Shown: positions 15,585 through 28,596 of the stretch, in pieces
How the letters are laid out: each line of letters opens with the position of its first letter
Position numbering within the stretch: position 1 is the first letter of the stretch
Source: an uncultured virus (IMG/VR IMGVR_UViG_3300032007_000042)
Taxonomy: Duplodnaviria; Heunggongvirae; Uroviricota; Caudoviricetes; Crassvirales
Direction: 5' to 3' (one strand)
DNA: 55,778 nt
Virus record (IMG/VR): IMGVR_UViG_3300032007_000042
Position numbers and translations under genes: made by a program
The notes under the pieces: model-generated
Database searches by the model: none
Told to the model about the DNA's origin: nothing
Seen by the model: the letters and a program-made list of their open reading frames with translations, nothing else

Positions 15585-16056
15585 TGGTTTCTTGTTTTAA
15601 ATGTTCTAAACACTCAAGTAACTGCCTTTTTGTGTATATCTCCCATAATTCTATTTTATCTTTATCTTCCCTCTTTTCAAGTGATGCTCTAAACATCTTA
15701 AACCTATATACAAAGGTATCTGTAGAAAATCCTTTTACTTCTATTATTATATGCTTTCCTTTATAGTCAAATGTAAAGTCAGGTGTATAAATCATAGAAG
15801 TAAGTGGTCTCATATCCTTACAAGTAAACTTGCTGACTACCTCTATATTATGGTTCTTTCTCTTAAACTTATTCTTAGTATAGAAAGGTACAGAGGGAAT
15901 AAACCCATCCCACAGAATAAATGTTTCTTCTTCATACTTAGGAGTAAAGCCATACTCTATAAGAGTTTTATAAGTTGTTACTTCAAGCTGAGACCTGAAC
16001 TTTATACCATTATATTCTTTAGGATGGGCATTCTTTATCTTTTTATTCTCAATCAT
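15574..16056 (-). CDS. PD-(D/E)XK endonuclease (T7 endo I/DUF1064-like)
   Basis: FRSQLE, YTPDF, IIEVKG. Confidence 0.8.
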   Translation of the reverse strand: MIENKKIKNAHPKEYNGIKFRSQLEVTTYKTLIEYGFTPKYEEETFILWDGFIPSVPFYTKNKFKRKNHNIEVVSKFTCKDMRPLTSMIYTPDFTFDYKGKHIIIEVKGFSTDTFVYRFKMFRASLEKREDKDKIELWEIYTKRQLLECLEHLKQETNGN

Positions 16057-16618
16057 CAGCTATGAGTCTAAATCCCTTAAGAAAAGCATCAAGAGCTTTA
16101 TCAGTAGTGAAAACATGATTGATAAAATCATCCTTATCAGTAAAAGCTTCCTTCTCAGTCAAAGGACATTTTCCTTTCTTACAGCAGTTCTTTTCCTCAA
16201 GAGCTTTTACTCTCTTTGATAAGCTATATACTTCCTTATCAATAGCCTTTACTGATTTACCTAAGGTTTCAAGAGTATCAACAAGAGCATCCATAAATTC
16301 TTTCATATAAGCATCCTCTTCTGAATTTTCTGAATCTTCTGAATCTTCAGAATCCTCATCCTCCTTATCTTCCTTGGTATCATCATCTTTAGAGAAATCA
16401 ATCAAAGGTTTCTTTTTAAGTTCCTCATTAGTATCTTCATCATCTTGAACATCAAGAATACCCTCTTCAAGAAGCAAAGGAATAAGCTCCTCACTAAACT
16501 TAACCATCTTTACTTTATGCTTATCAGTTCCATCTGGGTTACTCTTGATGAGAACAAGTTCAATGATGTCACCAAAGTCTACTACTTCATTTGTGTCTTT
16601 AAGAACATACTTTTTCAT
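16049..16618 (-). CDS. acidic hypothetical protein
   Basis: 189 aa with EDS repeats and coiled coil. Confidence 0.75.
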   Translation of the reverse strand: MKKYVLKDTNEVVDFGDIIELVLIKSNPDGTDKHKVKMVKFSEELIPLLLEEGILDVQDDEDTNEELKKKPLIDFSKDDDTKEDKEDEDSEDSEDSENSEEDAYMKEFMDALVDTLETLGKSVKAIDKEVYSLSKRVKALEEKNCCKKGKCPLTEKEAFTDKDDFINHVFTTDKALDAFLKGFRLIADD

Positions 16619-16629
16619 GCTTTCATAAT

Positions 16630-17307
16630 TTAAGAATTATACCATTTAATTCCATAGCCATTTTGGTCTATAAGAATCTGATTTATTTTGTTCCATATAT
16701 TAGGCATTTGACTATGTGTTCTTGCATAATAAGCAGGATGCTTAGTCTCTATGATGTAATTAAACCTATCATTAATATAGGGTTTTAGTGACTGCGCATC
16801 ACTGCCCATTAGCACATATACAATGCCTGTTGCAGCTTTTGAGAGATTAGTAAGAAAGGATGTGATAAAGGGTTTCCACATGAGTGTATGACTACCTGTT
16901 TTACCTTTTATACAAGAGAGTGCTGTATTGAGTAGCAGCACCCCTTGTCTCTCCCAACTCTCCAAACTGCAGTCAAAGTTAATACTTTCATGAGGCATCC
17001 CAAAGTTAATAAATGAATCCCTTAGAACCTTCAAGGAAGGAGAATAGTCTTTCTCAAGAGTATCTGAAGAGTTAGCAAAGGCAAGGCCTGTGGCTACAGG
17101 ACGTCCATTGGTATAGTTAGGGTAGGGATCCTGACCTATAATCACTACTCTTAAGTTATGAAACTTGCAGAGTCTGAATGCATAATAAATATCACACAGT
17201 TTAGGACAAATAAGTTGCTTAGATCTCTGTAGCTTAATTGCCAATCTACTTGCCTCTCCAGTATTAACTATTTTATTCCAGTCATCAAAGTATTCTTCTA
17301 TTGTCAT
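16630..17307 (-). CDS. ung: uracil-DNA glycosylase family 1
   Basis: VVIIGQDPY, GLAF, QGVLLLN, HPA. Confidence 0.93.
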   Translation of the reverse strand: MTIEEYFDDWNKIVNTGEASRLAIKLQRSKQLICPKLCDIYYAFRLCKFHNLRVVIIGQDPYPNYTNGRPVATGLAFANSSDTLEKDYSPSLKVLRDSFINFGMPHESINFDCSLESWERQGVLLLNTALSCIKGKTGSHTLMWKPFITSFLTNLSKAATGIVYVLMGSDAQSLKPYINDRFNYIIETKHPAYYARTHSQMPNIWNKINQILIDQNGYGIKWYNS

Positions 17308-17780
17308 ATTACTACTGGCAGCTTAACCTTATCACACTTATAGTTATCACAACAAGCATTAAGAATTACACGTGTAGGGCTGCTTAAATATCCTAATGAA
17401 GAGACTATTTTAATGTTTCTTATATTTCCAAGTGCATACTGGAAGTTATTAAGCACAGTAATACTCTTTGCAATACATGTACTTCTTGTTACTACCATCA
17501 GTATCTCAGGTATAGATTTATCATCTCTACTGTAAGCTATAAAATAATTTGATAAAAACCACAGCTCAGAAGTAACAGGATTTGAATATTTATAAATCTC
17601 GCTTTTATCTATATTTTCAAATAGAGAGTTATTTCTAATTAGGGTTGCTAAATCACCATCTGCCATTATCTGCCCTTTATCCATAACATCAAATCCTTCT
17701 ATGGCATTAAGATACACACTATCAGAGACAATTACTGCATCAGTAAAGACAGTATATAATTTATTTATCTTTTTGTTCAT
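17304..17780 (-). CDS. hypothetical protein
   Basis: 158 aa; coupled to both neighbours. Confidence 0.7.
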   Translation of the reverse strand: MNKKINKLYTVFTDAVIVSDSVYLNAIEGFDVMDKGQIMADGDLATLIRNNSLFENIDKSEIYKYSNPVTSELWFLSNYFIAYSRDDKSIPEILMVVTRSTCIAKSITVLNNFQYALGNIRNIKIVSSLGYLSSPTRVILNACCDNYKCDKVKLPVVI

Positions 17781-19054
17781 AAGTCCTTAAATCTTAAAAT
17801 CATTTGTGTTGCATCATACTCTGTAAAGAATGGTACATATCTTCTAAGAGGGTCATTAATATCTTTATTAAGATTACTACAGAAATTGATATACAGATTA
17901 GTTACATATCCAGCACACATCTGAGCAGCAAAGGCTGTCTGTTTATAGCTACATACATCTTCCTGGGCCTCACTATCATCAAATAGCCACTTATCTTCAT
18001 ACTCTTTTATAGCCTTTTCATTAGATGGATCAACACAAAGAATCTGCCATTTCTCAGCACTCAGTCTTGCATCTATCAGTAAACTTAACTTAAGTTGAGA
18101 CATATACCAGTCTTTGTTACAATCTGAGTTTAAACACTCTTTAAGATCATCTATACGTTGCATCCATTTACTAAACACAAGTTGTCTTGCAGCCATATTA
18201 TCAAGACCAGTAATAACTATAGGAATATCATCAAATGAGTCACTTGGAGAGAAGTTTTCTTTAATTTTTGTGTGTATATATGGATTAAAGTTTTCACATT
18301 GTACTGACACTACGGCACTTTTAATACGTCCTATATCTGATATGCCAAAGTTCTGTCCAGCAAGATTTTTCTGCTCAATAATGTCTTTGTCATATATTCT
18401 TAGTGTTTTATCTCCTAGTACTCTGCAAAGAGATACTGCTATATTTGATCCAAGTCCACCAGCACCAACAAGTGCTACATGATTTTGTGCAGCTCTAAAC
18501 CACTCAGCTCCTCTAAATCTTGCATTAACATCAGTAAGTTTACTCTTAGGAGTTTCTGTTTCCTCCTCCTCTTTTTGCCAAGGAGAGCTTCTAAACTTTA
18601 TTTTCTTACATTGTTTAATATACTCACTAAATACAGGTATACAAATATCAGATTTACCTGTAAATACAAGATCCATTATAAATTTGTCATAGTCATCAAG
18701 CAATGATCTATAAGCTTTTTCTACCTTAATTTTAACTCCAAACATTTTAAGATAATAAAGCACCCATCTTGTTGTTAAAGGCAGTAATATTATCGTTTTA
18801 TTATTACACTGGAAATTAAAGTAAAAAGTATGTGCAGTATGACTAACACAAACAGGTAATTTATTATAGTTGTCTACTAAAATATTTGTAAACAAGCTGC
18901 CTAAATTAGTACTTCTTACACTATGAAGTTTTGGTACACTGATTCCATTATCCATAAGATAAGCATAGCAATCATCACTAACATCACTAATGATATTATC
19001 TAGTGAGGAATTATGCTTAATTGTCTGGATTGTTCCATCAAAAAACTGTTGCAT
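17777..19054 (-). CDS. ThiF/E1-like adenylyltransferase with N-terminal extension
   Basis: VGAGGLGS, YDKDIIEQKNLAGQ, DNMAAR, IDAR; candidate catalytic Cys in EDVCSYK. Confidence 0.88.
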   Translation of the reverse strand: MQQFFDGTIQTIKHNSSLDNIISDVSDDCYAYLMDNGISVPKLHSVRSTNLGSLFTNILVDNYNKLPVCVSHTAHTFYFNFQCNNKTIILLPLTTRWVLYYLKMFGVKIKVEKAYRSLLDDYDKFIMDLVFTGKSDICIPVFSEYIKQCKKIKFRSSPWQKEEEETETPKSKLTDVNARFRGAEWFRAAQNHVALVGAGGLGSNIAVSLCRVLGDKTLRIYDKDIIEQKNLAGQNFGISDIGRIKSAVVSVQCENFNPYIHTKIKENFSPSDSFDDIPIVITGLDNMAARQLVFSKWMQRIDDLKECLNSDCNKDWYMSQLKLSLLIDARLSAEKWQILCVDPSNEKAIKEYEDKWLFDDSEAQEDVCSYKQTAFAAQMCAGYVTNLYINFCSNLNKDINDPLRRYVPFFTEYDATQMILRFKDL

Positions 19055-20190
19055 TATTCAGTTGTATTAATGTTTTGAATATTGTTATTACCAAAGATGT
19101 TGGCTTCTTCTGTGTTGCTCTCCTCTAAATCCCAAATTACATCACTTAAGACCAACAATAAATTATTCTTTTCAGTGTCATCAATTCTTTTATCTGACAT
19201 TATAGCATTGTATACATGATCTATCTGTTGCACTGATGGATTGAAGAAATCTTGCCAAGCATCAATAAATGCTACCCAAAATATGTATGATCCGTGCTTC
19301 TTGAGTAAGTAAGGATTATAAGCAGCAACATTATCATCTGTACTATGTACAAAGGAGTATATATTAAATGATAAGTTGTAAATGCTTTGCAGCAACTCTC
19401 CTATTGTATGAGAATTATTGTCCTTATCCATATAATATGGATACATATATTGGGATGCAGTATTAGTAGCATTTGCAGTGATTTTACTCTTTTTCTCTTT
19501 CTCTTTAGCTGCTATAATATCAGCTACTTCTACTTTATATTGCTCCTCTATACTCTTGTATTCTTGAGTTGCTGAGTCAATTGCAGGCTTTTCAATTTCA
19601 CAATCATAACATAGTATTCTTGTAAAATCATCTGCTGTTCTATTGCTTGTATGGTAGATACTACTATTTGATTTATTTTCATCTCCCATATAAGACATTG
19701 TGCTAATTTCTTTTGTTGTCTGTACAGTAAGAATATCGTGATGTACCTCTTCCTTTTGTGTAAATTTAGCAACATATGAACCAGCATTATTAACAATTAT
19801 AGACAATACATTGTTCATCTGAGAGCTGGCTTCATGCAAAGTTGAGACATCCGTGCTTGAGAAAAAGCAGCTCATTTTATTATGTGAATGAAGAGTTGCT
19901 ATCTTACATCCTAAGAGGGTATCAATATGCTCAGCATAATAAGAAGCTGTATCACCATTCATATCATACTCTGTATATACGCCACTTCCTATATCTTGTA
20001 GGCAAAAGTCCTCTACCTTAAGTATAATATTTCCATTCTCTTTTATATAGGTATAGAATGCTGCACCACTCCATTCATTATTAGGCAGTAAATTACAAAG
20101 AGCCCTTACTTTAGTTTCACAAAGTTTTGAGAAGATGAGTCTTAATTTTGTGTGCTCTTGAACGAAAGTTGTCTTCTGATTGGATTGCAT
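19054..20190 (-). CDS. JAB/MPN+ metalloprotease
   Basis: NEWSG Glu and HSHNKMSCFFSSTD (HxH-x7-SxxD); ATG at 20190. Confidence 0.85.
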   Translation of the reverse strand: MQSNQKTTFVQEHTKLRLIFSKLCETKVRALCNLLPNNEWSGAAFYTYIKENGNIILKVEDFCLQDIGSGVYTEYDMNGDTASYYAEHIDTLLGCKIATLHSHNKMSCFFSSTDVSTLHEASSQMNNVLSIIVNNAGSYVAKFTQKEEVHHDILTVQTTKEISTMSYMGDENKSNSSIYHTSNRTADDFTRILCYDCEIEKPAIDSATQEYKSIEEQYKVEVADIIAAKEKEKKSKITANATNTASQYMYPYYMDKDNNSHTIGELLQSIYNLSFNIYSFVHSTDDNVAAYNPYLLKKHGSYIFWVAFIDAWQDFFNPSVQQIDHVYNAIMSDKRIDDTEKNNLLLVLSDVIWDLEESNTEEANIFGNNNIQNINTTE

Positions 20191-21238
20191 AAACACTATT
20201 AATTAAGTTGATTAAATAATTATAAATAAGATTTATATAACACAGTTTGAGGATTTTGACATTATAGTATTCTTCATTAGAATGATCTGCTAATATCTTA
20301 ACTGTAGGATACTCACCTTTAAATTTAAAATACATGCGGGCATCTTCATTCAGATAATAATTTTTTTGATTCTTCTTGCAATAATATAGTCCACCTATGC
20401 AGTATACTTCTTCATACATACTGCTAAGTATGAGTTTACTCTTCTTTGCTACTTTGGTAACACGAGTGATAAACTCAGCATCAGAAGCCTTGAGTTGCCA
20501 GTTTTTTCCATCATAATAGAAGTCATCAAGTCTCAAGTTACTATAGTAGATAATAAATTTCTTTATTCTATTATGAACAGAATTAGAATTTTCAAAGTAA
20601 TAACTTGAATTAACCTCAATAGGGCTTTGATTATAATCTGAGGTAATGTCTGTAAAGGAGATATATGGAACTCCCTCATTACTTTCAATTCTAAGAGTTC
20701 TTTCTACTTGAATAATGTAAATATTAGTAAGTAGTCCTATATTATCTGTGTTATGCTCTAGTAAAGCTTTACTAATATCAGCTCTTATAATATTAACAGG
20801 AGTATCACCTGTTCCTAAGCAAAAATCTCTAAAGTCAGTAAATCCTCCCTTACGTACATGGGAATGGACATATCCTTTAGCTATTTCTTTTTTTGTAAAA
20901 GAAGCTCTTGCAAGACTGAGACTAGGATATGGAAACTGATGCCTAACATATACATCATAAATAGTATACTTATTACCATTATCATTAGTAAGTTCAATAC
21001 TATCATAGTGAACTATGATTTGTACTTCTATTCCATAATCTAATATAGCAGCATAAAGATACTCTTTCTCATTATCTGGAAAAGAATCATAACCATCTTC
21101 TATTGCTTTTAATATTAGACTATTTGCTGCCTGTATATCCATTCTATTCTCAGGATAGAACTCTTTAAATGCTTTTATAATGGCATTGAGCTCTTTTAGC
21201 GTTAGTTTTTCCTCTTCTGTTATTTCTAACTTTGCCAT
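20117..21238 (-). CDS. prokaryotic E2-like protein
   Basis: YVHSHV...FCLGTG resembles the UBC HPN...CL active site; context with E1 and JAB. Confidence 0.6.
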   Translation of the reverse strand: MAKLEITEEEKLTLKELNAIIKAFKEFYPENRMDIQAANSLILKAIEDGYDSFPDNEKEYLYAAILDYGIEVQIIVHYDSIELTNDNGNKYTIYDVYVRHQFPYPSLSLARASFTKKEIAKGYVHSHVRKGGFTDFRDFCLGTGDTPVNIIRADISKALLEHNTDNIGLLTNIYIIQVERTLRIESNEGVPYISFTDITSDYNQSPIEVNSSYYFENSNSVHNRIKKFIIYYSNLRLDDFYYDGKNWQLKASDAEFITRVTKVAKKSKLILSSMYEEVYCIGGLYYCKKNQKNYYLNEDARMYFKFKGEYPTVKILADHSNEEYYNVKILKLCYINLIYNYLINLINSVYAIQSEDNFRSRAHKIKTHLLKTL

Positions 21239-21246
21239 AATAACAT

Positions 21247-21286
21247 AAAAAAATAAGGCATACTATCCTCTATGAATAGTATGCCT
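21247..21286 (-). terminator. intrinsic terminator between Ubl and E2-like genes
   Basis: AGGCATACTAT/ATAGTATGCCT perfect 11-bp stem plus U7 tract. Confidence 0.8.
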
Positions 21287-21309
21287 ATGAATAAAAATTA
21301 ATGGTGATA

Positions 21310-21942
21310 TTATCTATGCATATTTGCCAGATCCTGGGCAGAATAAGGATTTGGGAATACCTTATATATACCAGCAATAAGGGCAGTATACAGCTGTTTA
21401 TGTTCTGTAGCATCAACAGTATTAAGCATTTTAACTAATGTCTTCCAGAGTTCCTTCTCTGTTGTAGGAACAGAAGTATTCTCTACAGTAGGTGCAGCAG
21501 CTGCCTCTTGATTACAGGTATCTGTAGAAGCAGTATCTACAGGAGCTGTAGCTGTATCAGACACTCTGCCTGCATTACAAATAATATTATTGAGGTCATT
21601 GGTAGAAACCTGTGTAAAGTTACGTCCAAATGTTTCTTTTACAAGATCCCCAAGATTATGTTCCTTGACATAAGCATAGCACTCTTTACGTGTAAGTGCA
21701 CCATTCTTAAACTTATTTTGTGCAGGTGATACAAAGAATACATAGCCTTTATCAGCCTTCTCAGCTGGGATAGCTGGAATACTCTGTCTATCACTTGTGA
21801 GATCTGTATGAGTAGTACCCTCAAAGAACTGCCCATCACTAATACTAAGAAAGTGCTTAAGTCCACTAAGGTCTGTTACAGCCTCAGGAAGTTCTACTAC
21901 TTTAGTTGTGTTGTCTACGGTGTTTACAATTGTTGCTTTCAT
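21310..21942 (-). CDS. putative ubiquitin-like (beta-grasp) precursor with C-terminal extension
   Basis: Residues 1-81 show a beta-beta-alpha-beta-beta-like pattern ending KFKNG; heads the E2/JAB/E1 cluster. Confidence 0.55.
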   Translation of the reverse strand: MKATIVNTVDNTTKVVELPEAVTDLSGLKHFLSISDGQFFEGTTHTDLTSDRQSIPAIPAEKADKGYVFFVSPAQNKFKNGALTRKECYAYVKEHNLGDLVKETFGRNFTQVSTNDLNNIICNAGRVSDTATAPVDTASTDTCNQEAAAAPTVENTSVPTTEKELWKTLVKMLNTVDATEHKQLYTALIAGIYKVFPNPYSAQDLANMHR

Positions 21943-22095: not shown

Positions 22096-22704
22096 ATGAC
22101 AGGATATATTTATAGATACTACAATTCTGTTCAAGATATGTATTATATCGGGCAAACAAGAGATAGATTAAAGAAAAGAGACTGGTCTCATAGAAAAGGG
22201 AAAACTGATACTCATTCTTATTTTGATAATGAATATCATGCCCATCCAGAACAATTTACTTTGGAAATCCTTGAAACCATTAAGTCAGATTCTAAGCAAG
22301 ATCTTGTAGAACGATTAAATGAACTTGAAGTTTTCTATATTGCAGATTATAAGAGTAAAGGCAAGAAGTTATATAATATTCTACCTGGAGGAAATCAAGG
22401 TTGGAAAGATATTCCACCTACTCAAAATATGCTAGATGCATTAACTGCTGGAAGAATAGCATTTAATCAATTTGAAAAAGATAATGCCTTACCAAAGGAA
22501 GAACGTATAAAGCGACATAGAGAAGCTACTAAACGTTGGAAGTGTAACAATCCAGAGAATTATAAAGAATACTATACAAAGCAAAACAAGCTTAGAAAAG
22601 ATAAGAAGCATGAATGGTATTTAAAGAATAGAAAGAGGATACTTGATAAATTACATGAAAAAACTAAGAAGCATCAAGAAGAAATGGCTTTATTAAATTC
22701 ATAA
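22096..22704 (+). CDS. free-standing GIY-YIG homing endonuclease
   Basis: GYIY...YYIGQT, R, E, LYN motifs; basic tail; antisense to operon. Confidence 0.85.
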   Translation: MTGYIYRYYNSVQDMYYIGQTRDRLKKRDWSHRKGKTDTHSYFDNEYHAHPEQFTLEILETIKSDSKQDLVERLNELEVFYIADYKSKGKKLYNILPGGNQGWKDIPPTQNMLDALTAGRIAFNQFEKDNALPKEERIKRHREATKRWKCNNPENYKEYYTKQNKLRKDKKHEWYLKNRKRILDKLHEKTKKHQEEMALLNS

Positions 22705-23681
22705 ATCATTCTACTTTTTCCAAAGTAATGAAATATATCTGACCAATCTTTAGCTTTGCCTATTATTGGACAAGGTATATTAATGAATTTTGTTTTTTCA
22801 CATAATTTTTTAGCATCATCTACTCCACTTTTGTCACCATCATATGAAACATATACTTTATTGAATCTACGTTTTAACTCATTGATTGCTGTTTCAGACA
22901 TATTATACCCCTCACCTTGCAAACACAATGTAGGAATATGTAATTGACAGCTGACACACAAGGCATCCTTAAGTGAACTACAGATGACAACCCTGTCACC
23001 AGTCTTAGGAATCTTAGTCCACAGACCAATAACAGAGCTGTCCATCTTAGAGCACCATTTATAACCATGAGTATTGAAAGGTTGATATATCTTTAGTGAC
23101 AGTTTACCTTCTTTTCTTTCTACAAAGCAATAAGCATACTTGTCAGCAGGAAAGATATATCTCTTACCTTTATCTTTTAGTGATAGTTTCTTTGTAACTA
23201 TCTTAAAGGATATAGGATATATTTCAGCATAGTGAAGCCATTTCTTTTCTACTCCATAGCTACTCCAATAAGCATAGTCATAATCTCTCCAAGGACGTAC
23301 TGCCACTTGAAGAGATGTAAGATGATTATATTCTTTACGGGTGAATGTCTTAATCTGTTTAGGCTTGATGACAATATTATCTTTGTCAACAAAGAACTTA
23401 CTTATTCTCTCAAGAGCTTGAGAGATAGTACAGTTCCAATATTGACAAAGAAGATCAAGCAATGTTCCATTCTCTCCAGTTGCATGGTCTTTAAACCTTA
23501 TATGTCCACCATTGGTGACATATATACTGAATGATGGTTTATTGTCCTGTCTTAAAGGAGAGCAGACAAGACAAGGCAGAGATTTAATCCATGGAAAAAC
23601 TATGGATAACACTTCAGTTTCAGAATAATGCTGGAGAATCTCTGTCTTTGAAATACTTGATGCTGTCTTGCCTACCACCAT
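22674..23681 (-). CDS. DNA primase (crAss-type, TOPRIM)
   Basis: SPLRQDNKPSF, FKDH, SSLKDA, YDGD and KDWSD. Confidence 0.88.
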   Translation of the reverse strand: MVVGKTASSISKTEILQHYSETEVLSIVFPWIKSLPCLVCSPLRQDNKPSFSIYVTNGGHIRFKDHATGENGTLLDLLCQYWNCTISQALERISKFFVDKDNIVIKPKQIKTFTRKEYNHLTSLQVAVRPWRDYDYAYWSSYGVEKKWLHYAEIYPISFKIVTKKLSLKDKGKRYIFPADKYAYCFVERKEGKLSLKIYQPFNTHGYKWCSKMDSSVIGLWTKIPKTGDRVVICSSLKDALCVSCQLHIPTLCLQGEGYNMSETAINELKRRFNKVYVSYDGDKSGVDDAKKLCEKTKFINIPCPIIGKAKDWSDIFHYFGKSRMIYEFNKAISS

Positions 23682-26189: not shown

Positions 26190-27735
26190 CAATATGTTGT
26201 CATAGAGGCTCTTTATCCTCTATTTCTATAGCTTATGTATTATACTATAGTTCAGACTATCTCATCACTTTCTTTTAGATATTGGTATATATAGGAAAGT
26301 GTTCCGCACTCATGTATATTTTACCTTCAACACCACTTGTTAAGGCTACTTTATATAGTCGTTGTTCCTTCTACATATTTCTATGTAGCTTGGATAAGGG
26401 TTGCCATCTAATAACTATGGTTTTCCCAGATTCACGGAATTTTATAAGGACTGTTTTTATTATTAGATTATCTTATTTTGTATTTCATGCATTCACACAT
26501 ATAAGGTTCTATCTGAGATTTCATATAACGAAAACTTTCAGCTTTAATATATATTGTATTATCTTTGCAGTGGGAAGTCTCTAAATTGAATTTTACTTTT
26601 AAAAACTCTCTAAATAGATCTATTTCTTTTTTACTAAAACAATTTGTAGCTAACCTTCCCCCACAATTTTGTTTATTGCCATCATCCATATACATATAAG
26701 CTAATGATTGCCAAGTAAAATTAGTAAAGAGTTCAAATGGAATTCTCTTTTTACCATCTTTATAGAAGCATTTATAAATTTCATTTAGTGCTGGGTTTGT
26801 AGGAATACCACACCAATAAGAGTCATAGCACTTTCCTGTTCTTTTATCTGGACATCCTTTATGGTAATAAGTATAGGGATTTAGATTAGAAAGTTTTTCA
26901 GCAACATAATATGTGTAGTCCTTTTGTTTTGGACAATGAGCAAATGTCATCCTTGCATTTTTATTTGGACATTCCATACTACCATCTCCCATCATTATAC
27001 CAAGAATAATTTCTAAATTATCTTGAGTAAGAGGGTTATTCTTTGCTTCTTTGTAACTTTCTCTTAGATACCCATTTCTCATTCTATATCCATAGACTCC
27101 ATCTGAAGATACATTCAGCTCTTTTGCTATTTGTGTGTCATTTAGACCTTTGTTAAATAGCTCCTCAAACTCATTTTTATGTATCTTTGAAATCTTATCA
27201 TAAGTAAATTGAGATTGAACTTTTCTGTTCCTTCTATGGTATTCAATCACAGCTCTGCTTACTCTAAAAATTTTGGCTATTTCTGTATCTGTCATTCCTT
27301 TATTAGCTAAATTCATAGCTTTTTCAACATCTTCAGATGACATTTTAATATCATAATCTGTTTTAATATTGAATTGCTTTTTGAATTTAGTTAAAGTGGC
27401 AACAGATACATTACATATCTTACTTATCTCAGCACTTGATTTTCCTTCTGCATATAACTGTTTTATATAATCTGAATCATTCCAGATTGATGATTTCCAG
27501 TAGTTTGCAGAAAGACCTAATTTATGTCTTCTATCTCTTATTAATTCTCTTGTGCAATCTAATTTTTTAGCAATTTCGTTATCACTTAATCCCTTATCAT
27601 AAAGGGCTTTCATCTCATTTAAGTTAATTCTTTTTGTTCTACCCATATTTTAATTTTTTGGGCAAAGTAAAAGAATTTCTACCTTATAAATTTGTGTATA
27701 AAAGTATTACTTAGATAATCTAATAAATGTACTTA
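26190..27735 (-). mobile_element. group I intron in dnaB
   Basis: Exon 1 ends in U (AAGGAU); intron ends in G; IGS GUCCUU at 26446-26451; P-like 26423-26437, R CAACGACUA 26356-26364, S-like GAGAUAGUCUG near 26253-26263. Confidence 0.9.
26468..27646 (-). CDS. intron-encoded LAGLIDADG endonuclease with N-terminal HTH repeats
   Basis: IILGIMMGDGS and LAYMYMDDG; four GxSxxEIA-like HTH repeats. Confidence 0.88.
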   Translation of the reverse strand: MGRTKRINLNEMKALYDKGLSDNEIAKKLDCTRELIRDRRHKLGLSANYWKSSIWNDSDYIKQLYAEGKSSAEISKICNVSVATLTKFKKQFNIKTDYDIKMSSEDVEKAMNLANKGMTDTEIAKIFRVSRAVIEYHRRNRKVQSQFTYDKISKIHKNEFEELFNKGLNDTQIAKELNVSSDGVYGYRMRNGYLRESYKEAKNNPLTQDNLEIILGIMMGDGSMECPNKNARMTFAHCPKQKDYTYYVAEKLSNLNPYTYYHKGCPDKRTGKCYDSYWCGIPTNPALNEIYKCFYKDGKKRIPFELFTNFTWQSLAYMYMDDGNKQNCGGRLATNCFSKKEIDLFREFLKVKFNLETSHCKDNTIYIKAESFRYMKSQIEPYMCECMKYKIR

Positions 27736-28596
27736 ATCCTTGCCTGGATTCTTACTATCTGCAAGTCCAGCTAAAGAAGGCTCTATTTTATTTGCTTTAA
27801 AGGCATCAAGACTTATAGTATCATTACCTTGCTGTTGTATTAGTATAGGAATATAGTTATAATGATTTCTGAATATCATAAAATACTCAGATAGTTTATC
27901 TATCCTTTCTTTCAATGACATTCCTCTCTCTCCATCAGTAAGAGAAGCATGATCCCATATTATCTCTACATACTCATTTTTATCTTTTGGCTCATAGTAA
28001 TCAAATACTTCCTTTTCCTGCTTAACTCCTGTTTCTTTGTTTTCTATTTCTATCTTCTTTTTATGAACAGTTCCTGCTTCCTGTGCATATTTATTAATAG
28101 TTTTCCAACAACCAGTTGGATTACGCTCACTAATAAAATGCACATGTTCCTCAAAAAATGACAATATACTTTTATATTCTATACTATTAAGAAGATTAAG
28201 AACATCTTCATCAAGAACATTATCTTCATCAATAGAACCTAACTGAAGAGTTGATAGTCTTATCTTTCCTCCTGAAAGAGTATAGAGAAGATAACACATG
28301 AATCTCATAGTAATCTTCTCAGGTGTCTCTTCAAGAGGAAAATAGAATATCTGAAGCCTTATCTTGTCAGGATTATTATAAGCATATAGTACAGGTGTAT
28401 ATACAAATAAATAATTGGCAAGCTGTGACTTTCCTCCTTTACTGATAGCTGAAACTAGATAATATTTACCTTGTTCTATACCAGGGAAGTCTCTTCTAAA
28501 GTTCTTAAATGGGGAAGGTATGCAATTAATTCCTCCTGATAATATAATCTCTCTTCTCTTTTTAAGGTCTAAAAGGACTCTATCTATTAAATTCAT
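27736..28596 (-). CDS. dnaB: DnaB-like helicase, exon 1
   Basis: Walker A AISKGGKS, IIWDH, IQQQ, LADSK. Confidence 0.85.

Follow-up and report, generated by a model that had tools for sequence, protein, structure and literature searches.

A putative ubiquitin-like conjugation cassette of crAss001-like phages, with a candidate tag fused to a phage passenger protein

Ubiquitin-like (Ubl) conjugation in bacteria has been demonstrated to act against phages for the Bil and CBASS systems and has been proposed to do so for Bub, and a full set of conjugation genes on the phage side would reverse this picture. In the available text of PMC11601596, the JAB protease of Bub (6E/DUF6527) is described as cleaving a fusion just past a conserved internal glycine, generating two functional proteins (BubAB), and the accessible part of the Bil study (10.1101/2023.09.04.556158) describes a Ubl-GFP fusion that is cleaved at its internal glycine. 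For the lambdoid TAPI/TAPK proteins, it is predicted that a phage JAB cleaves a phage Ubl with a C-terminal extension (available text of PMC1779556), and in the PRTRC/Iyer 6d systems (PMC1779556) a Ubl, an E2-like protein, a JAB and a ThiF-type E1 are found on mobile elements. The locus described here is a cassette of five ORFs, genes A to E, at 17304..21942 of the window, by which the whole analysed stretch of 55,778 nucleotides is meant (an uncultured virus, IMG/VR record IMGVR_UViG_3300032007_000042). The window is a fragment of a crAss001-like (Steigviridae-type) phage, as seen from its portal (phrog_6547), PolA, primase, uracil-DNA glycosylase (UDG) and exonuclease genes in Pfam and PHROG family scans that covered 27 of its 84 ORFs. 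By tblastn and annotated regions, the cassette genes correspond to crAss001 gp79, gp78, gp77 (annotated as 'metalloprotease domain'), gp76 ('thiamine biosynthesis protein') and, by position, gp75. The initial annotation of this DNA had proposed consecutive Ubl, E2-like, JAB and E1 genes with a coupled ORF of 158 residues, and all five ORFs are indeed found on the minus strand where it placed them. The ORFs overlap by 80 nt (B/C), 1 nt (C/D), 4 nt (D/E) and 4 nt (E/UDG), and genes A and B are separated by a gap of 71 nt.

It is probable, with fair confidence, that the cassette encodes a Ubl conjugation pathway that is used as an accessory host-interaction module. Gene A would be made as a fusion precursor, which the JAB would cut after G81 in the motif [K/R]-x-[K/R]-[S/N]-G, generating a β-grasp tag and a small helical passenger protein. 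The ThiF-type E1 would adenylate G81 and form a thioester with it at C368, after which the tag would be transferred to C140 of the E2-like gene B protein and ligated, without an E3, to a target amine, most likely of a lysine. The target may be chosen by the C-terminal domain of the E2, by the variable N-terminus of the E1 or by gene E, and the JAB could also reverse the link between tag and target. As an accessory host-interaction module, the cassette would probably be expressed in the middle (replication) phase. The processing-and-thioester cascade itself is highly probable, as suggested by the predicted folds, the invariant residues, the domain boundary, the synteny and the modularity. That host proteins are the targets of the tag, for takeover or counter-defence, is the most likely purpose, with about an even chance of being right. 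The most specific form of the proposal, in which lytic phages of the crAss001 group run a self-contained cascade on Bacteroidota host proteins, with a tag cut from a fusion, a new E2 family, a gene E that sets the target and stackable orthogonal cassettes, is tentative and falls somewhat short of even chances.

Gene A (210 residues, ORF 21310-21942, minus strand) is the equivalent of crAss001 gp79. Its residues 1-81 (21700..21942, minus strand), the predicted mature tag, comprise a ubiquitin-like β-grasp domain (residues 1-75) and a flexible tail to G81 (codon 21700-21702). The AlphaFold2 (AF2) model, calculated from 44 sequences, has the order β-β-α-β-β-β over residues 1-75, with pLDDT values of 91-95 over residues 1-70 and below 50 at the tail (76-80). 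When this model is compared with known structures by VIA, the highest Z value, 7.9, is obtained for a DIX domain (rmsd 2.5, 69 aligned residues), followed by values of about 7 for ubiquitin-fold domains and of 7.2-7.4 for bacterial Ubl3 proteins, and the top 50 rows are essentially all β-grasp domains matched over residues 1-77 (Z 6.4-7.9). Foldseek returns nothing at E<=0.001, its top rows being DIX, ubiquitin, NEDD8 and SUMO domains. The alignment profile finds only chance matches among the PDB sequences, a Pfam scan of 44 gene A members finds nothing above noise (one member matched DIX at E 0.0023), and a search of the ESM Atlas with the tag finds unnamed clusters only (0.79-0.81). The β-grasp assignment of this model leans on the near-unanimous match list, the Z values themselves being moderate; it agrees with the initial annotation, for which the fold of the N-terminus was to be checked with AlphaFold and Foldseek, in that the fold is predicted with pLDDT above 90. 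The KFKNG motif noted earlier ends at residue 81, and the conservation expected of its glycine is found: G81 is present in 208 of the 210 unique gene A sequences, the two exceptions being C-terminal halves of split genes, and it is the only glycine of gene A that occurs in all 44 sequences of alignment A6. The tail motif is shared by the close homologues, and in the distant loci that were aligned an SG ending is found. The tail of ubiquitin resembles this basic-x-basic-small-Gly pattern.

Residues 82-210 of gene A (21310..21699, minus strand) form, according to the predicted model and stand-alone homologues, a passenger protein. In the AF2 model, three helices (85-128) follow G81, after which a disordered linker leads to a C-terminal part that is also helical. 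As an impression, residues 85-128 may be HeH/SAP-like. In cr106_1 (L008:1734-2937) and in a second locus (L087:2003-3304), gene A is split by an HNH gene; the first ORF ends two residues past the glycine and the remainder restarts as a separate ORF beyond the HNH gene. The two HNH proteins are 64% identical, and therefore the two splits may not be independent events; their first residues resemble NUMOD4-HNH. In IAS virus and cr116_1, a stand-alone homologue of the part of gene A after the glycine is found, which has 82-85 residues and begins at the position of window residue 83. It is encoded at L123:8544-8801 (IAS) and L120:9120-9368 (cr116_1), is helical, belongs to no known family and is followed by rIIA/rIIB. 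It sits just past the primase and, in cr116_1, beyond an HNH gene. In these two phages tblastn finds no E1 match, and the loci searched contain nothing that matches the Ubl, B, C or D. A search limited to proteins of 46-149 residues found 212 short stand-alone passenger proteins, of which the 120 listed have 81-89 residues, and their profile matches residues 84-143 of window gene A (E 1.1e-6, Z set to 1e6). In the type-I gene A of the complete genome G002, a methionine directly follows the glycine and is aligned with the start of the stand-alone passenger. The natural gene splits and the stand-alone passengers mark G81 as a probable domain boundary, and, on these sequence comparisons, the extension past G81 appears to be an independent passenger phage protein and not a disposable tail. 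Together they suggest that the tag was fused ahead of a pre-existing phage gene and is then cut off again, giving two products. Ubiquitin, likewise, is cut from fusions with ribosomal proteins. The proposal of the initial annotation that the JAB matures the Ubl at G81 is retained in that G81 is computed to be an invariant boundary, and is altered in that the extension appears to be a separate phage protein, such that two products would be made. A further HNH-like gene is found between genes A and B at L063:2546-3085 and L075:2579-3118, both of these genes being intact.

Gene C (380 residues with a GTG start, 19054-20196, minus strand), the equivalent of crAss001 gp77, is a JAB/MPN+ metalloprotease with a long C-terminal extension beyond the JAB domain. 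Its match to the Pfam Prok-JAB model (E 0.0024) is below the curated cut-off, and the best PDB matches of its profile are CSN5 (E 0.0026) and JAMM1, with both of which the motifs align. The metal-site and catalytic motifs, described as intact from the start, are so: of 95 sequences, 91-93 carry the residues of E41, H103-S-H105 and S113-x-x-D116, and the others have gaps there, as fragments or as an intron-split gene. In a locus very closely related to the window (L002:5869-6149), a group I intron (RF00028, 100.7 bits) lies in the JAB gene between HSH and SxxD; an intron-bearing junction is also seen as a loose end in run X1.

Gene D (425 residues, 17777-19054, minus strand), the equivalent of crAss001 gp76, is ThiF/E1-like, as had been claimed. 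It matches ThiF (PF00899) at E 8.5e-18, above the cut-off, with the adenylation domain at about residues 175-425, its nucleotide-binding motif GxGGxG is at 197-202, and its PDB matches are E1, ThiF, MccB and UBA5. The nucleotide-binding residues are invariant. The candidate cysteine C368 (codon 17951-17953), which is part of the motif CxxKQT, is present in 93 of 93 sequences, five of whose source loci came from a scan with patterns that included this cysteine, and also in 6 of 6 distant Fpv-like loci. Its invariance and position suggest that it is the catalytic cysteine. CxxC zinc motifs are absent from gene D. The N-terminal stretch of about 170 residues is variable and is absent from several homologues.

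Gene B (373 residues, 20117-21238, minus strand), the equivalent of crAss001 gp78, is a divergent E2/UBC-like candidate, with an E2/UBC-like N-terminal domain (residues ~5-200) and a separate C-terminal domain. In the AF2 model (mean pLDDT 90), helices flank a β-meander in the N-terminal 200 residues, and in three PDB fold searches UBC/RWD chains dominate, with VIA Z values of 4.5-5.9 and an rmsd of about 4. The motifs noted earlier, HSH at 125-127 and FCLG with C140, are found, and the conservation of the proposed E2 cysteine is complete in the alignment of the window with the best 150 of 3,214 cluster representatives: H125, S126, H127, C140 (codon 20819-20821), G142, E185, S186, G189 and P191 are invariant in 151 of 151 sequences, C140 being the only invariant cysteine. 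These clusters, defined at 50% identity, are all those matched by the gene B profile at E<=0.001. Bacterial E2s are recognised by a His-containing motif shortly ahead of the cysteine, as stated in the available text of PMC1779556. When gene B is compared by HHalign with a single PRTRC protein B, C140 is placed on the cysteine of that protein in a weak match (E 0.079), the best of five targets. The alignment profile of gene B has only chance matches to PDB sequences, the ESM Atlas gives no usable match, and in BFVD only uncharacterised phage relatives are found at E<=0.001. Gene B is likely, but not established, to be an E2.

Gene E (158 residues, 17304-17780, minus strand) is fast-evolving, is coupled to the E1 gene, accompanies the cassette and occupies the position of crAss001 gp75. 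It has no family match and no invariant residue. Its clear homologues (about 160 residues) are found solely in the window's own type of cassette, and each cassette of G002 has one gene E. Homology of this ORF with crAss001 gp75 was considered and discarded, HHalign to gp75-type proteins giving a probability of 0.22 and no detectable homology. The cassette-type-specific distribution fits, but does not show, a role as specificity factor, for which gene E is a candidate; that it acts as an adaptor is a guess. Genes A, B and E have no significant match to any Pfam, PHROG, NCBIfam or PADLOC model.

In the A-B gap, at 21246..21286 (minus strand), an intrinsic-terminator-like hairpin of 13 bp with a T run (21286-21256) directly follows the 3' end of gene A, at the place where a terminator had been claimed. 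Of 16 related loci inspected by eye, 13 have a hairpin with a U-run after gene A, one has a weak one and two have none. The region has 5 terminator-like sites against 2.4 +/- 1.7 in shuffled sequences, so that the window hairpin alone is not striking. A terminator at this position would tilt expression towards the precursor relative to the enzymes. In RNA libraries from a single bovine-gut sample, contigs span the cassette, but contigs can neither show transcription nor rank the genes. A sigma-70 promoter scan gave 35 sites where 35.2 are expected by chance, and no Bacteroidota-type -7 motif was found upstream of gene A.

The cassette is bordered upstream by the DNA primase gene (22674..23681, minus strand; PHROG primase E 6.8e-42 and synteny) and downstream by the UDG gene (16630..17307, minus strand; Pfam UDG E 2.9e-14 and synteny). 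Its gene order is the same in 11 of 11 annotated records, which include several Steigviridae genera, two unclassified animal-gut phages and Flavobacterium phage Fpv3. A scan of viral sequences with the E1 alignment found 353 relatives, and in the best 80 of these, which include many near-identical strains and three duplicates of earlier loci, genes A-B-C-D occur in this order in 78, the other two being cut by contig ends. From these comparisons the cassette is considered to be a swappable module, common to many crAss001-like and Flavobacterium Fpv-like phages, and not a one-off. In IAS and cr116_1 the slot between primase and UDG is occupied by rIIA/rIIB, and rIIA systems are described as phage counter-defence in the available text of PMC7824862. 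In cr108_1 (L121:8277-15002) and phi14:2 (L122:8025-13669) it is occupied by a cluster of ATP-grasp, COOH.NH2 ligase and amidotransferase genes, which in phi14:2 also holds GGCT and amidoligase genes. The idea that the cassette is core to Steigviridae was dropped, as neither tblastn nor inspection of the slot finds it in IAS, cr116_1, cr108_1 or phi14:2.

In the complete 94-kb genome G002 (L107:2060-11833), two whole five-gene cassettes stand in tandem after the primase, one of them crAss001-like and the other window-like, with only 27-36% identity between them. In this genome, no UDG lies between the tandem cassettes and a resolvase-like gene. Divergence is more tightly coupled among the four genes A-D (rho of pairwise identities 0.78-0.86) than between them and the primase (0.55-0.72), in a comparison in which the pairs are not independent and to whose gap G002 contributes. 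The cassette appears to move and duplicate as a unit and to be dispensable for replication in close kin, and therefore the context favours a role in host interaction.

In a scan of genome contigs, 5 of 56 candidate stretches were confirmed, all of them on contigs of metagenome-assembled genomes (MAGs) with the phage gene order as far as the contigs extend, and these five are probably co-binned phage. Of 400 small genomes scored in a search at phylum level around G009, two matched (G009 itself and G394), a result that says nothing about Bacteroidota. The short contig of G394, a 0.7-Mb bin, carries at L109:714-2163 a very distant primase, a gene A-like ORF in which SG is kept and a gene B-like ORF with HSH...CLG. 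When 150 genomes were searched with Prok-E2_D, a single match was obtained, which is interrupted by a stop and was not used.

Several observations weigh against a conjugation pathway that acts on the host. For gene A, the Z value of 7.9 falls in the range that VIA calls common, and the best matches are DIX domains, not modifiers. For gene B, no Foldseek match in the PDB is found at E<=0.001 (best E 0.09), non-catalytic RWD/UEV-type domains and unrelated chains score like true E2s in the fold searches, and no member of a set of 67 matches the Prok-E2 or UQ_con Pfam HMM. Many of the 80 viral loci are near-identical strains, and the place of the cassette inside the replication block makes a phage target equally compatible. 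For the UBC fold expected of gene B, UBC/RWD is the consistent best structural match, but a weak one (Z <=5.9, Foldseek E >=0.09). The claim of a complete viral tagging pathway stands as regards the β-grasp domain, G81, the JAB motifs and the conservation of C368 of the E1 and C140 of the E2, and is weakened by the E2 fold match.

The alternative that survives best is that the targets are phage proteins, the tag serving as a SUMO-like switch on the replisome (primase, SSB or recombination proteins) or acting on the released passenger. In its favour, every cassette lies within the replication block beside the primase, the passenger to which the tag is fused keeps its place by the primase even in cassette-free phages, and the crAss001 replication genes are middle genes in the available text of PMC8375218. 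Set against this, the cassette is missing from close relatives that have the same primase and UDG, and the two divergent cassettes of G002, which has a single primase, fit accumulated specificities better than a replisome switch. This alternative is unlikely. Conjugation to host proteins also has to be compared with conjugation to a non-protein amine, such as a lipid, a peptidoglycan or capsule precursor or a nucleic acid, for example in superinfection exclusion or envelope remodelling, where the cassette would be a stand-in for the ATP-grasp/COOH-NH2 ligase cluster with which it shares the slot. The ligase cluster of phi14:2 and cr108_1 is at the same position, the chemistry of both modules is the making and breaking of amide bonds, the E2 of gene B is highly divergent and has an extra domain, and the ATG8 system conjugates to a lipid. 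A shared slot need not mean a shared substrate, the slot also being used by rIIA/rIIB, and the bacterial relatives that have been characterised, Bil and CBASS, use proteins as acceptors (available text of PMC11601596), which makes a non-protein acceptor improbable.

It is very improbable that the cassette is a sulfur relay, in which a ThiS/MoaD-like carrier would be matured by the JAB and activated by the ThiF-type protein, gene B inserting the sulfur into DNA, RNA or a cofactor. This is the reading that the 'thiamine biosynthesis protein' annotation implies; the best NCBIfam matches of gene D are ThiF models, below their cut-off (72 bits against 159 for the ThiF equivalog), the neighbours are nucleotide-metabolism genes, and the maturation of ThiS/MoaD fusions by JAB proteins is proposed in the available text of PMC1779556. 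No rhodanese, cysteine desulfurase, ThiI/TtuA or ThiG is found among the annotated neighbours or the 27 of 84 window ORFs scanned, although such partners may be supplied by the host; the E1 is without CxxC, the tail has a single Gly and not Gly-Gly, and gene B resembles UBC/RWD and no sulfur-insertion fold. Least probable of all is a decoy or antagonist of host Ubl defences (Bil, CBASS Cap2/Cap3 or PRTRC), with the JAB stripping host tags or the tag and enzymes jamming the host E1 and E2, for although Hor et al. speculate in the available text of 10.1101/2023.09.04.556158 that phage DUB domains counter Bil, and in relatives rIIA/rIIB, a counter-defence pair, sits in the slot, a decoy would have no need of all four matching components, with their catalytic residues kept invariant and their joint divergence and duplication.

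Between primase and gene A, the window has a GIY-YIG homing-endonuclease-like gene (22096-22704, plus strand), which overlaps the primase end by 31 nt, and in locus L003 there is no such gap between primase and gene A. At 26468-28596 (minus strand), a DnaB-like ORF (27733-28596) precedes an ORF for an HTH-LAGLIDADG endonuclease (26468-27646), and the DnaB-like helicase is probably interrupted by an intron or a homing endonuclease gene. A 189-residue protein encoded at 16049-16618 (minus strand) has an acidic low-complexity repeat whose length differs between strains (indel near 16319).

The presence of ThiF and JAB genes in crAss-like phages, stated in the initial annotation, is in agreement with the literature: in the beta-group replication block of Supplementary Fig. 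2B of Yutin et al. 2021 (PMC7886860), which shows these five genes, 'MPN, metalloprotease' and 'ThiF family' are named next to the uncharacterized AXQ62722, AXQ62721 and AXQ62718. In the main text and searchable supplements of that paper 'ubiquitin' and 'JAB' occur 0 times, and no Ubl or E2 assignment is made there. A term search of the available text of PMC6235969, PMC8375218, PMC10136315 and PMC10172136 found no discussion of ubiquitin or ThiF. In the open-access full-text literature no paper was found that describes the cassette as a conjugation system or names its Ubl or E2, a prior mention being possible. A 2026 preprint, in its available part, reports a gut-virome family that resembles UBA5, a possible phage homologue of bacterial ubiquitination proteins, which may or may not be the family of the cassette. 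Another preprint, in its available part, describes a PRTRC protein B that diversifies in a Phocaeicola prophage. The proposed pathway would assign a role to two large families that lack annotation (3,214 clusters for the gene B profile alone), and the 'thiamine biosynthesis protein' label of crAss-like genomes would be superseded. Two phages with an intact cassette, crAss001 (on Bacteroides intestinalis) and DAC15 (on B. thetaiotaomicron), are in culture together with their hosts, and the proposal is directly testable there; this also opens a route to the PRTRC/6d class, and the G002 pair offers a test of orthogonality.

Of the described systems, PRTRC is the closest in layout. In the one operon compared, from a Polaromonas plasmid, the order Ubl-(F)-E2-JAB-E1 is that of phage A-B-C-D, phage B, C and D are each best matched by their PRTRC counterpart in HHalign, and the PRTRC C protein that was compared also continues past its Gly-containing motif. 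The cassette was nevertheless rejected as PRTRC proper, the PRTRC family models giving scores far below their cut-offs: PRTRC_ThiF 40.4 bits against 144.75 for gene D and PRTRC_A 12.6 bits against 101.8 (E 0.075) for crAss001 gp77, with no B or C match. Moreover, the phage E2 has invariant histidines ahead of its cysteine, whereas the 6d E2 is without the classical histidine (available text of PMC1779556), and the phage Ubl is fused to an independent phage protein. PRTRC F and E were not recognised (gene E has no NCBIfam match, and A-D do not match the F-position protein), nor was ParB, for which no genome-wide search was made.

With type I and type II Bil, the cassette shares four separate Ubl, E2, JAB and E1 proteins (BilA-D), Cys-based chemistry and the lack of an E3, and, in the available descriptions of Bil, a fused Ubl is open to cleavage by the DUB, and short overhangs after the glycine occur in some BilA proteins. 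Bil is host-encoded, antiphage and tags a tail protein, whereas the phage cassette is viral, as seen from the portal gene and the Steigviridae synteny; BilD has the IAD-AAD-CYS architecture, the phage tag is one β-grasp domain with a 129-residue passenger, and the PADLOC models give E 0.02 for BilD and no match for BilA-C. The available text on Bub describes Tyr/Ser oxyesters without catalytic cysteines, and an E2 as the fusion partner, whereas the phage E1 and E2 cysteines are both invariant and the phage genes have no DUF6527 match. The E1-like domain is shared with type II CBASS Cap2/Cap3 (PADLOC E1-E2 models to E 2e-11, and Cap2 structures among the PDB matches), from which the cassette differs in its unfused E1 and E2, its true β-grasp tag and neighbours among which no CD-NTase is recognised. 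The lambdoid TAPI/TAPK genes, in the available text, have no E1 or E2 and belong to tail operons, whereas the phage cassette is in the replication block. On sequence comparison, the cassette would work like Bil and resembles PRTRC/6d in gene order, while standing outside PRTRC, Bil, Bub and ThiF as their family models define them. With ThiF and MPN already annotated, it represents a known kind of system that is new on the viral side and in cultured phages.

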